64,000 bases of DNA, taken from the NCBI GenBank assembly GCA_964016885.1, contig OZ024740.1, positions 244,218,001 through 244,282,000 on the forward strand. Direction: 5' to 3'. Under the pieces are notes generated by a model. That model ran no database searches. It was given only the letters and a program-made list of their open reading frames with translations, and had not been told where the DNA came from. Positions 799-29,020 of the stretch are shown piece by piece (positions within the stretch are counted from its first letter, which is position 1; each line of letters begins with the position of its first letter). The position numbers were made by a program, and so were the translations under genes. The stretch comes from Eledone cirrhosa (Eukaryota).

Positions 799-888
799 CA
801 CACACACACACACACAGAAACACACACACATATATATATATATATATATATATATATAAGATCAAAAGATGGTTAAAGGAGTTCAATA

Positions 889-958
889 TATTTTATTATG
901 CGCATTTCAAAAACAAACATCATCAAACAATAATATTTGTGTTTTCATCAGATAAAAC
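889..958 (-). ncRNA. Hammerhead ribozyme (family A)
   Basis: Reverse complement of the 1081-1150 motif. Confidence 0.85.
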
Positions 959-1080
959 AGGAGAACATGATATGAAGGCTAAAAAAACACTTGTTGATAG
1001 TGCAGTTTTAAATCAACATATGTTGATTTAAAACTGCACTATCAACAAGTGTTTTTTTAGCCTTCATATCATGTTCTCCT

Positions 1081-1150
1081 GTTTTATCTGATGAAAACAC
1101 AAATATTATTGTTTGATGATGTTTGTTTTTGAAATGCGCATAATAAAATA
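1081..1150 (+). ncRNA. Hammerhead ribozyme (family A)
   Basis: gttttat CTGATGA [stem II] GAAA tgcgca TA ataaaat, with self-complementary stem III ATGCGCAT. Confidence 0.88.
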
Positions 1151-1423
1151 TATTGAACTCCTTTAACCATCTTTTGATCTTATATTATGCATACTCCAGT
1201 CCCACAAACTGTAGAGTGCTTCTTATCCGATATCTGCATTGCTTTATTGTACTACAATAAAACTCACCTCCTACATATATATATATATATATATATATAT
1301 ATATATATATATATATATATATATATAAATGAAGTATTTCCGTAGGAAAGATAAAGGAAAAGAGAGTGCTCTATGTAGGCTACAGAGCTTTTTAGTTATG
1401 TAATAAACAGTATAAGATAATTA

Positions 1424-1487
1424 ATTCATTTACCAGTGGTTTCTTGAAGACAGATATTTATATCTGTCTTCAGTCGTCAGAATGAAT
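1424..1487 (-). ncRNA. Hammerhead ribozyme (family F)
   Basis: attcatt CTGACGA c-tgaagacagata-taaa-tatctgtcttca-a GAAA ccactgg TA aatgaat. A second copy with a mutated core lies at ~3005-3067. Confidence 0.9.
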
Positions 1488-1887
1488 AATATGGAATGTT
1501 TATTAAATATGGATTTGAAAATAAAGTTTAGGATAAAGGAAAGTGAGGCTGAAATATAATAACGGTCAAAAATTGAGGGGAAAAAATATAAATAAATATC
1601 CAGAACATAAACATACACACACTCAAACACGAGCTTATACGTATTAGTACGTAGTCATATACATTTTCACATAAGTGTATGTGCGTCTATATGGAAATAC
1701 GAACAGACATATAAACGTGTGATCTTTTGCTCACATATGCACACACACACAGGCGCACACTCACACAACTCAATAATAACGTAAAATCTATATATACACA
1801 CATGCATATCTCTCCATACACATATACATAAATATATACATATATATATATATATACATACATATAAACATATATATACACACATAT

Positions 1888-24057: not shown

Positions 24058-24251
24058 AATGAAGGAAATGTGGTAAGGAACCAGGTGGACAATAATGCAC
24101 CAAAGTTCTCAATACTTAGGGTAGTAGAGTGGGTAATAGGAACCAGTAAGACCCCGACGGCTGAGCTCAAGCCGTTTCGACGGCTAATTCTGGACTGAAT
24201 TAACCGTCGAAACGGCTTGAGCTCAGCCGTCGGGGTCCTACTCGTTCCTAT
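24058..24251. mobile_element. Short fold-back mini-PLE (family C)
   Basis: Tail homologous to 6516-6596 (reverse complement), with arms ~24136-24190 and 24198-24251. Lies between two (TA)n tracts. Confidence 0.87.
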
Positions 24252-24802
24252 ATATATATATATATATATATATATACCCACACACAAATACAGATGCACA
24301 TATACATATATACATTTATATATATTAGACTGGTGTTCTGTTAAAGAATGTAAGGGAGACACAATTAAAGTAAAGTACTCAATAGATCAAGGAGAGAGGA
24401 TACTTAATTTAATTTCATTTAGAACTACTATTTCATTCCCAAATAAGAGGCTTTCTTGTAATATTACAAAATAAAACAGCACTACTCCTATAAAAGCCAC
24501 TTCTAAATTGAATGCTACTATGTATCATCATCATCATCATCATCATCGTTTAACGTCCATCTTCCAGGCTTGCATGGGTTTGGACGGGAGTTTTCCCACT
24601 TGAGGCAAGATTTGTTGTCCTGCTCGTATAGGACTGTCTGGCGGGTTTTCTACGGCTGGATGCCCTTCCTATATATATATATGTGTGTGTGTGTGTGTTT
24701 GCACACACATATATATATATGTGTGTGTGTTTGCACACACACACACACATATATATATATATATATACACACACAAACACACACACATATACATATATTA
24801 TA

Positions 24803-24927
24803 TATGATCTGAGTTCAAATCCCGCCGAGGTTAACTTTGCCTTTCATCCTTACGGGGTCGATAAAATAAAGTACCAGTAATGTACTGGGTAATTGCTGGC
24901 CTTGTGCCTAAAAATAGAAACAATTAT
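24803..24927 (+). mobile_element. SINE, 5'-truncated
   Basis: B-box through the agaaacaattat 3' end. Confidence 0.85.
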
Positions 24928-27900
24928 ATATATATATATGTACAACCCATTGATATATACACTTAGCTACACACACAAACCACAGCTACACAGAGACAAT
25001 TACTTGTACTCATATCAAAGCCTACCATCACGAGAATGTTAATTCCTTAATAAACAGAAACTAGAAGAAAATGTGGAAGGGAGCTGTAACAACTCAAGGA
25101 TCACTAGGACCATGTCCTGTGCTAGTTGTTCTTTAGTTCATATTTTTTTTCTTTAGCTAATATTTTTATGTGTGTATATGTGTGCGTTATAGCCACGTAA
25201 TCATCAAAAGTCATCACCATCATTTAACAGCCATGAAGTCATGATGATGATGATGATGATGACACACACACACACCTACTGACAAAGACACATTAACAGA
25301 CACACAAACTCTCTCTCTCTCTCATGTTCTTGCCACATAATCATCAAAAGTCATCATCATCATGACTATCACCATCCTTTAACAACCATCAAATGATGAT
25401 GATGATGATGATAATGACACACACACATACACCAACACACTGACAAAGACACATAAACAGACACACATATATTCAAAATCTCTTTCTCACTTACACTGAA
25501 ACACAGATACACTAACACACATAGACACAAATACACACACACAGATACAAACACAAAAAAAATCAATGTACACACACTGACCCATTCAAATACATACATA
25601 CAGAAATACACACTCAAATGCACACATACATTCAAATATTTACATACACACAGAAACACACATACTTGGGTACACACTGAGAAACACACCCACTCACACA
25701 ACTTGCACTCAGTAGACAGTATCACTGGCTCGATATTAACTTCATTGTGGATACAGACATTGCTGAATGGTTAAGAAGTTAGTTTTGCAATTAAAATCCT
25801 GGGTTCAATCCCATTGCATGGCAACTTAGTCAAGAGTCTTTTACAGTAGGCTTGGGATGTACCTAAACTTATCAATTAAATTGGATAGACAGAGACCATG
25901 TGGAAGCCTGCTAGATGGATCCTACCTGTATTTCAAAAGCCAATACATGTCATAATATATTGTCACACTGTTTCTGCCTGAAAATTACATTAACGGTACA
26001 CGTGTCTGTGGAATATTCAACCACTTACTCATCAGTTCACAAGCTGGATGTTCAGTTGATCAAATGATGAGATGCTTATTGTTGAAACCAAAGAAGGATA
26101 CAACATCATTAACCTTTTTGATACTAAACCACCAGAACTGTTCATTTTAAATTGTTTATATTTATCTAAAAATATTCCATCATAATTTTATATAAGAATC
26201 TTTGTTAAGTTATGTTCCAAACACTAGCTTGATAATGAGAAAGTTCATTATATTATTAAATACTTCATTATTTTAAAAACTATTTGCGAATCATAGACAG
26301 CATCTTGCATTAGAATTATGGTAAAGAAAGAGTTAACTTCATCAATGATCAAACTCAATGTGAATTAAGTATAAATACTTGTTGTTGTTTAGTCCCAGCA
26401 GACCTATGATGAAAGACATTTAAGCTATATCCAACTACCTTTAAAGGTGTGATCTGAGGGAAAATCTGGCTCCTATTTCTAGCTTGGTGGGTGACTTCAT
26501 ATCAGTTCCTTCACTGGCTTGGTATCTATAAAAGGTATATTCTTTCATGGGATATAAACACACACACACACTCACATTCATCCATTGAAAAAGCTGAAAC
26601 TTGGGTTTACATGCAATGAAGAAAGATTGCTCATTTAGGCACAAAGCCTGAAATTTGTGGGGGAAAAGAGAAGTCAATTATATTGAGACCAGTATGTTAC
26701 TGGTACTTTATTTTATTGATGCTGGAAGGATGAAAGATGAAGTCAACCTTGGCAGGATATGAATTCAGAAAGAAAGAGCAGAAGCAAATGCTGCAAAGCA
26801 TTTTATCTGATGCTGTAAGAACTCTGCCAATCAACCACCATTCTACTTCTATTAAAGAATCAAATACAAGAGTGAAGAATAATCTTACTAATTACATCTT
26901 TTCCATGGATTGGATAATACTGTTGTATTTTATACTTAAATATATAGTTTGTTTTATGTAAACAATGTCAACTAAATATCATGAAGTTAAAAAGTTAAAG
27001 TCTGTATTAAATCCGGAGGCTCGTCAGATCATAGCTTATGCCAGTTTCATGTGGTGTTAAGTAACTGAGAATACAAGAATCTCATCTGGGCGGGAAGTCA
27101 GTCCATTGAAGGATTTATCCCCAGCTGTTGCTAGTACACCTTTTTGCCAGCTGAGTGGACTGGAGCAACATGAAATTTACTCAAGAACACATGTCACCTA
27201 GTCCAGGAATCAAAGGCATATTCCTGAGCCAAACAATTAGGCTGCATACTTTTACTGGATATAATAGGAAGGGTGAAAATTGTGACTGAATTCTTGTTTG
27301 TCGTAACACTTCATGGAATTGTTTGTTAGAAGAGGTTTATTTCAATTAAAATAGGAAAAATATTAGCTGTAATGCTTCCAAAATTAATATATTGTTAATA
27401 TATGAAACACTTTTGAGGACCAGTTAGTGAATAGTTGTGATATCATACTGTTAGATATAGACACAGTATAATACATTCATTCATGCAAGCATACACATAT
27501 ATATATACAAGCATGCATACATACATACATGCATATATACATACATGCACATGCACACACACACATACATATATACATGGTGGCTGCCAACTCGTTTTCG
27601 AGTATGGCCACTACTTTATATCCATGTAGGAGAACCCCTACCGATGCGCTGAACGAGTGTAACTTTTTAGTCCAGCCAGCAACTTGAAAACTCTGGTACA
27701 AACACTACACTTGTGACAATTATTGACACATAGTGCTGGGCCCATGGTACCATGTGATGACAAGTGCAGAGAGATCTCCAGATATAAAGCAATGCCTGTG
27801 CTGGGAAGCTTTTATAGTGAGCAAAGGCACTGCACAAAGCCAGTCCCACTCTCTTAACCAAGATGATATTTACCAAAAAGAAGAACAAGTCAACATCATT

Positions 27901-28814
27901 GGATACCATCAGAGTTGCAGGTGTTATATACATACATACATATATACATACATACATGCATACATACATACATACATGGAGAGATGATAATGTCTTTTCT
28001 TACAACCTTGCCTCTAGGAAGGTGGCCGGTCAAAAATATACTCAAAATCAAGAGAAAGAGAGACATACATACATACACACATATTGCTGACGTATAAAAC
28101 ACTGTAAAGGTATGTTAGCAATATTGTTATGGTGTTATTTAGTTAGATTCAGAAACAGTAGCATACCAACACACACACACACACACACACACACACACGC
28201 GCATACACACACACACACACACATGCATACACACACATATATGTGCACAGGTGTACATATACATTTTAAAGGTTAAAAAATGGAAATATCTGAAATTAAA
28301 AGCATTAAGGAAAGTAAGAAAGAATTTAAACATGATTGTAAATTGCTGGCGAGTATATTTGAAACAGTCAGTCCTTAACTGATGTGGGAGAATATGCATG
28401 AAATATATATATATATTCTTAAGGTCAAGTTTGAGTCTAGAGTTTCTCCTGTGTACTGACATAAACTTCATAGTAGAAAGAGTCAAACTTGGCCTTCATA
28501 AAGAAAATATTAATCTCTACCATGGTATTGAGTACTCATTTTTGAAAATGTCAATAATACGCAGAAACATAGACATACATGCACATATTTATATATACAC
28601 ATACATACATATATATATATATATATATATATATTTGAAAAAAAGACTGGATCTACCAACTCATATTATAATATTATATTACAACATTAGATCATAAATT
28701 TTTTAACACTACAAGTGAAATCATTCTTTTCTTTTTTTCAAATATACCAAACTGTACCAAGGATCTCACAGATTTTCCAATATATATATATATATATATA
28801 TATATATATATATA

Positions 28815-29020
28815 GGTAAGTTATTCCAGGTTGAATCGGAGGTAACCACAGTAAGTAAGGTACTCAATACATAGCAGAGTATAAAAGTTTTAATATAGAT
28901 GAGATTCTACAGGAATAGAACTGTTTGATTCTTTAGAAATCATCAGGAATCAATGATTCCTGATGATTTCTAAAGAATGAAACAGTTCTAGTCCTGTAGA
29001 ATCTCATCTATATTAAAACT
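28815..29020. mobile_element. Fold-back mini-PLE (family D)
   Basis: Arms 28886-28952 and 28954-29020 plus a ~70 bp left tail. HHR in the arms, between (TA)n tracts. Confidence 0.88.
28955..29003 (+). ncRNA. Hammerhead ribozyme (family D)
   Basis: gattc CTGATGA tttc-taaa-gaat GAAA cag-ttctagtc-ctg TA gaatc. The mirror copy at 28903-28951 (minus strand) has CAAA instead of GAAA. Confidence 0.85.

Follow-up and report, generated by a model that had tools for sequence, protein, structure and literature searches.

A 64,000-nucleotide (nt) stretch of the Eledone cirrhosa genome (assembly GCA_964016885.1, contig OZ024740.1, positions 244,218,001 to 244,282,000 of the forward strand), hereafter the window, contains six short, gene-less insertions derived from Penelope-like elements (PLEs). 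An earlier note on this DNA had described six fold-backs with a one-sided tail in (TA)-rich repeats. All six were located within a few bases of where it had placed them, with TA-rich repeats on their flanks, and each consists of an inverted pair of arms and a tail on one side only. The arms match the pseudo-long terminal repeats (pLTRs) of four families, A to D. The note had also reported families A and B as longer elements of the same asymmetry, bearing a reverse transcriptase (RT) and an endonuclease (EN); the long A and long B copies do show RT-EN homology together with this asymmetry. The short insertions (minis) and long copies are given below, with signed positions counted from +1 at the inner limit of each family.

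855..1275, plus strand: family A mini; arms 854-1019 and 1020-1185 (100% complementary), tail 1186-1275, centre CATATG at the fixed site of the family; minimal type I hammerhead motif 1088..1142 (plus), mirror copy 951-897 (minus).
1888..2087, minus strand: family A mini; arm stretch 1974-2088, 80% complementary and asymmetric; truncated within the arm, with the tail arm starting at +138 and the other at +96, off the fixed site.
3628..4067, minus strand: family B mini; arms 3711-3865 and 3913-4067 (99% complementary); asymmetric junction, tail arm at about -14 and other arm at about +35; hammerheads 3966-4014 (plus) and 3812-3764 (minus).
5975..6596, plus strand: family C mini; arm stretch 5975-6516 (96%), unusual far-upstream centre; U3-A8 variant hammerheads 6411-6496 (plus) and 6080-5995 (minus).
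15757..20359, plus strand: long family A copy; inverted arms 15748-16956 and 19062-20277, tail to 20359; open reading frame (ORF) 17022-18821, a 5'-truncated RT-CxCx5C-GIY-YIG.
24058..24251, minus strand: family C mini; arm stretch 24136-24251 (91%), at the fixed site AGTCC of the family.
28815..29020, minus strand: family D mini; arm stretch 28886-29020 (96%), at the fixed site AGATT of the family; hammerhead 28960-28998 (plus) intact, core in the other arm unmatched.
About 29097..32655, plus strand: long family B copy; inverted arms, right-hand tail, broken RT-EN ORF (tblastn pieces 29521-31258).

The tails of the minis are about 87-90 nt long in family A, 87 nt in B, 78 nt in C, and 67-69 nt in D. 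The minis at 855, 24058, and 28815 lie at the hot spot of their family, and those at 1888, 3628, and 5975 are one-off truncations. The arm of the mini at 855 is identical to the arms of four long copies (L030, L033, L060, and L062). The centre pattern of the mini at 5975 matched only three loci genome-wide, and its centre ACTTTC was dropped as a family C start site on that ground. Among the contigs listed over 6190-6300, none spans this centre by 31 nt on both sides.

The four families had been called unrelated in the earlier note. Their ORFs are homologous, with 37-54% protein identity, although the pLTR DNAs give no cross-match. The natural ORFs of families A, C, and D contain YxDD followed by GIY/YIG-like motifs, that is, an RT and then a C-terminal GIY-YIG domain, and family B is homologous to them. 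A CxCX5C linker is present in A, C, and D and was seen in translation in B. By eye, DKT replaces DKG as SDKT in C and D, and the frames of A and B stop short of this region. The RWK motif had no exact match in these ORFs, and RWR occurs at the N-terminus of C and D. The endonuclease core of A, C, and D is without CCHH and has CxxC and CxH near the C-terminus. The pLTRs carry a canonical hammerhead, with a U3-A8 core in C, and 22 of 25 family A tail ends run into (TA)4 or more. By the motif definition of Craig et al. (2021, PMC8557442), the parents are assigned to the Hydra clade of PLEs, with RWK matching only approximately; the supplement of that paper includes a cephalopod Hydra family. Pfam returned no match in the PLE frames of the window and, on the parent ORFs, only GIY-YIG for D (E=0.019, below the cut-off) and nothing for the other three families; a PDB search with the family C ORF returned no match.

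Between the RT thumb and the endonuclease of family A (18100-18400), an asparagine-rich stretch recalls the N-rich inserts of Adineta Penelope (PMC3846280). An abundant repeat resembling a short interspersed nuclear element (SINE) was observed at 16783-16977, 19060-19236, 30562-30746, and about ten other places in the window. Both arms of the long A element contain one such copy, so the repeat was probably already present in the template when the arm came to be copied a second time.

Genome-wide counts were obtained by sequence-pattern matching, with reversed patterns as controls. Exact end motifs, summed over both strands, numbered 10,875 for A, 5,993 for B, 54,367 for C, and 12,470 for D. 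Fold-back loci near one fixed position numbered 2,112, 315, 15,067, and 3,749, respectively, amounting to about 21,000 genomic loci, and the reversed-pattern controls gave 0. The 315 fold-backs of family B come from some subfamilies only, and in some of the counted loci (L083, L084) the second arm is very short. Each family has a sharp inner limit. Of 76 family A arms sampled by end motif, 27 end at -3..+3 and one at -30..-4; the remainder are scattered over +4..+126 (16 arms) or continue into long copies (32 arms). Arms ending at -3..+3 accounted for 12/32 in C and 7/30 in D.

The anatomy of the junctions was examined in 73 short junctions from the four families, after second hits in L047 and L132 had been dropped from 75 rows. 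One tail was found in 70 of them, none was scored in three, and no junction had two. The non-tail arm was the longer in 22 and the tail arm in 12, with 36 symmetric. In seven (L025, L031, L090, L091, L110, L111, and L131), the arms share no sequence and form a plain inversion, which self-copying could not make. The outer ends are fixed in all 31 short junctions of family A, at +255..257 for the tail arm and +167..175 for the other arm, and the exact non-tail end is common to minis and long copies. Near the limit, we counted 198 same-family and 0 cross-family joins, a count in which some locus overlap may remain. Eleven private letters, in 9 of 56 loci, are present on both arms. The inner ends vary: we distinguished 20 kinds of junction among 50 family A loci, 20 of which are letter-identical, and 29 kinds among 47 family D loci (of 50 listed). 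Two start sites and two stops would be expected to give this pattern of fixed outer and variable inner ends.

We consider it likely, with a probability of roughly 0.72, that the minis are gene-less insertions of Hydra-clade PLEs, each likely built anew from two inward complementary DNAs (cDNAs) joined head to head. The two cDNAs would start at two fixed initiation sites of one RNA, with the two cut strands of the (TA)n target serving as primers, and would grow inward to the RNA 5' end, probably the pLTR transcription start. There they would be joined head to head, either across 2-8 nt of microhomology or with a short filler in between. For another PLE, reverse transcription has been seen in vitro to start at two sites; the two outer ends would then correspond to these sites, and the tail to the stretch that they enclose. 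Tandem master copies show the order limit, hammerhead, site 2, tail/site 1, leader, and ATG; given this order, cDNAs primed at the signal copy on the 5' side would be complete though tiny. In these copies, the tails continue into the ORF leader. The tail of a family D mini (L347) extends about 12 nt into the leader, indicating that its template came from an ORF-leading copy.

Alternatively, the minis could propagate themselves, either as an inherited palindrome, like a miniature inverted-repeat transposable element (MITE), or in a SINE-like manner, with the arm transcribed from an internal promoter and the palindrome rebuilt. We regard this as improbable, although thousands of loci have a common centre, 20 of the 50 family A junctions are letter-identical, small mini-only groups occur in the sample (for example, L212 and L221), and a non-autonomous PLE, MRC1, is on record (PMC8557442). 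The haplotype and tree tests that bear on it cover family A. A tree was built from the arms of 52 minis and 35 long copies, the latter sampled with one 22-mer, and a single mini clade was rejected on it (approximately unbiased test, p-AU 2.3e-8). Minis and long copies are interleaved, and five sets of identical arms each occur in both groups. For each of the 25 young minis there is a long copy whose arm matches with 0-1 mismatch. Arm differences numbered 102, of which only 6 recur, each twice. One haplotype carries many different junctions; among the first 100 of 981 matches to an older, mini-rich haplotype, we counted by eye 71 long-type, 28 mini-type, and 1 other. An inherited palindrome would give no reason for the exact non-tail end common to long copies, and the family D minis lose the TATA box; the SINE-like form may apply to family A. 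MITEs have symmetric terminal inverted repeats and a DNA-transposon parent, whereas the parents here encode an RT and the ends are asymmetric; any target-site duplication would be masked by the (TA)n flanks. A self-propagating non-autonomous PLE would form a lineage apart from the long copies and inherit its structure; neither was observed in family A, although small mini-only sublineages may exist.

The minis are thus best read as insertion products rebuilt each time rather than an inherited MITE-like class. The earlier note had left the choice between a self-propagating MITE-like class and a dominant product of PLE integration. The interleaving and the varied junction letters within one haplotype speak against the former, and this variety, together with arms in common with long copies, supports the latter. 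Its proposed test, that unique centres would mark one-off products and shared centres a class, fails: thousands of loci share a centre, yet in family A the junctions vary within one haplotype and the minis are interleaved with long copies.

A further explanation, which we judge about equally doubtful or slightly more so, is that one strand folds back and primes itself at a micro-palindromic hot spot or a stop imposed by RNA structure, with later deletions at the centre giving the variety. In the family A parent, the centre is occupied by a palindromic hexamer, CATATG, family B junctions often use short palindromes, and the rare centre of 5975-6596 lies at a micro-palindrome. Relative to the hammerhead, the limit of family C falls within stem II and that of family D at the foot of stem I. 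Palindromes at head-to-head junctions were also reported for the inverted and solo pLTRs of Adineta vaga Penelope, where they were explained by self-priming on an antisense template (PMC3846280). The junction statistics here favour two separate cDNAs over such a scheme, which yields no non-overlapping arms, as found in 7/73 junctions, unless later deletions are assumed. The longer arm is the non-tail arm in some junctions and the tail arm in others (22 versus 12). Of 14 asymmetric family A junctions, eight have an arm that ends within 4 nt of +1 with no palindromic partner, and several of these are near-identical to current masters. The relation of the limit to the ribozyme is not constant across families. 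Perfect fold-backs are a known type of chimera, but it is very improbable that the palindromes are library or assembly artefacts, given that their centres lie at family-specific positions, their tails are one-sided, their two flanks differ and are (TA)n (22/25 family A tail ends), and in old copies the two arms have come to differ by as many as 11 mismatches.

Several observations weigh against assembly from two cDNAs at a fixed limit. Only three of the six minis in the window are at the fixed site. Minis cluster on the family A tree more than in shuffles (13 label changes versus 20.4), partly because of the sampling of long copies with one 22-mer. The inner limit of family B is blurred by subfamily divergence, with 2/30 arms at -3..+3. 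In addition, later rearrangement at palindrome centres could mimic some of the junction variety.

From sequence features, the inner limit is somewhat more probably than otherwise the 5' end of an RNA transcribed from a pLTR promoter, that is, a transcription start. All four limits fall on an initiator-like A, with scores of 6, 6, 7, and 7 out of 7, which 2-9% of nearby positions equal. The candidate start sites read TTTC|ATATG in A, TTC|ACTAT in B, TTT|AGTCC in C, and CCC|AGATT in D. Family D has TATAAATA at -30. Penelope transcripts are reported to start within the pLTR (PMC2377424). In family A junctions, an extra G stands at -1 in 11 of 20 free positions and the parental C in 2/20, which is suggestive of a copied cap. 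Other findings pull in the opposite direction. Because the sequence was already in view when the +1 positions were picked, the initiator match is inflated, and no TATA box was found at -30 in families A and B. AT precedes eight of the 11 extra Gs, and these eight may have arisen by templated duplication; in family D the extra base is G in only 3/7. Of 29 ORF-leading family D copies, with L334 excluded as a chance match, 20 pass the TATA box and only seven start within about -9..+5, as judged by eye; the limit thus shows no enrichment of full-length copies. A structural stop is a possible cause instead. Hammerhead cleavage was rejected as the source of the limit, since the cleavage sites are located 3' of the limits, with only single copies (L067, L166, and L301) ending near such a site. 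A rise in contig depth around +1 of the long A arm, where some contigs start in the runs of two organisms, was not used because assembly graphs break there.

With stem I required to span 5 bp or more, a hammerhead descriptor detected 12 cores in the window, whereas 20 block shuffles yielded 0.05 on average. Rfam returned no hammerhead family for the window and only generic hairpin (microRNA, miRNA) models below the cut-offs. The earlier note had assigned a hammerhead to each strand of the longer minis. This holds for three of the six (855, 3628, and 5975) but not for the mini at 28815, which has one core, or those at 1888 and 24058, which have none, the latter being without the 5' half of the core. 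On either strand of a mini, the sense hammerhead always lies downstream of its own complement. In silico, the mini hairpins have minimum free energies of -64 to -510 kcal/mol, and forcing the hammerhead fold costs 66-130 kcal/mol in the whole mini and 61-130 kcal/mol if the RNA ends just past stem I, compared with 3-8 kcal/mol in a single arm. Read-through transcripts of minis are predicted to be long hairpins with a trapped hammerhead, not self-cleaving RNAs; the proposal that whichever strand is transcribed cleaves itself thus runs counter to the predicted folding cost of 61-130 kcal/mol inside the palindrome. The hammerhead would be a passenger, locked in the hairpin on read-through. The family C core was observed to vary (TTGAAAA, TTGAGAA, CTGAGAA, and GTGAGAA; window 6411-6496 and loci L087, L103, L095, and L098); the U3-A8 forms retain the tertiary pair, and the other variants break it.

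Inverted pLTRs with a tail, the hammerhead, and the (TA)n preference are already known in PLEs. The Hydra-clade elements described in PMC8557442 have the same RT, CxCX5C linker, GIY-YIG without CCHH, and pLTR hammerhead, as well as (TA)n targets, an inverted 5'-truncated copy, and a one-sided tail. Their tails measure 30-40 nt, compared with 67-90 nt here, and the available text does not describe ORF-less palindromes with a fixed centre, of which there are thousands here. For Poseidon PAc of Anolis carolinensis (Frangieh et al. 2024, PMC11167929), the protein, predicted to be dimeric, cuts and extends both target strands in vitro at AT-rich targets, reverse transcription starts at two sites bounding the tail, and hammerhead cleavage is unneeded for insertion. 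Its start sites lie within the ORF, whereas those of families C and D lie in the leader before the ATG. According to the available text, second-strand synthesis was left unvalidated, and neither head-to-head joining nor coupling of the two sites is addressed. The Adineta vaga pLTRs (PMC3846280) likewise show head-to-head arrangement, junction palindromes, an optional tail, and TATA and initiator-like motifs. Non-LTR retrozymes (10.64898/2026.07.22.740005) are also non-coding, derived from pLTRs, and equipped with a type I hammerhead, but are direct tandem repeats with a ribozyme per unit, whereas the minis are single inverted pairs in which the ribozyme is predicted to be unfolded. Complete hammerheads in direct tandem units define that class, and two of the six minis have no core. 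As a separate observation, direct tandem units of the family D pLTR plus leader, each carrying a hammerhead core, form retrozyme-like arrays at L328/L329 (G000:C1:67880941-67881304) and G000:C4:279229178-279229702, with periods of 221 and 191 bp.

In L1 twin priming, two primers on one RNA produce an inversion that is joined by microhomology. The arrangement here differs in that both starts are fixed, the inversion is the rule rather than an exception, and both cDNAs are usually copies of one and the same stretch. In a literature search, outside which Repbase, Dfam, and subscription journals lay, neither ORF-less PLE palindromes with a fixed centre nor a coupled form of double priming came up in any report. 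We give even odds to the stricter possibility of obligate twin priming, in which one dimer acting on one RNA would start a cDNA at either tail end, one on each target strand, and the cDNAs would prime each other's second strand when joined. The ~21,000 palindromes would then be complete run-off products to a capped 5' end, and would map promoters and both start sites.

The window holds further related features. At 8732..10313, a family C arm (about 9984-10313, plus strand) adjoins an RT fragment of a fifth PLE family (minus strand) with no TA tract. The fifth family is 43-49% identical to A-D and has its own hammerhead (9033-8930) and a 79-bp hairpin (9240-9318). This is possibly a cross-family head-to-head join, the sole one seen. 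Further hammerhead-bearing pLTR ends lie at 1431-1480 (minus), 2327-2700 (minus), 2992-3096, and 49438-49498 (plus); that at 2327-2700 is a relative of family B, and those at 1415-1510/2992-3096 and 49438 belong to other families. Imperfect palindromes at 23085-23261 (87%), 36896-37223 (68%), and 40755-40862 (77%) match none of the four families, have no TA flanks, and are possibly old MITEs of DNA transposons. RT frames of the long interspersed nuclear element (LINE) type, unrelated to PLEs, were observed at 42981-43721 (plus; Pfam RVT_1, E=2e-16) and in L291:6857-8947 (minus).

The formation of the inverted repeat and tail of PLEs and their second-strand synthesis are called open in PMC8557442 and PMC11167929. 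Minimal insertions exist in this genome by the tens of thousands. Their junctions allow models of PLE insertion to be told apart, and name an RNA (134-278 nt, from +1 to the tail end) and start sites that are testable in vitro. Annotation pipelines could misfile the minis as MITEs or miRNA precursors. The approximately 21,000 loci are also potential templates for long hairpins.

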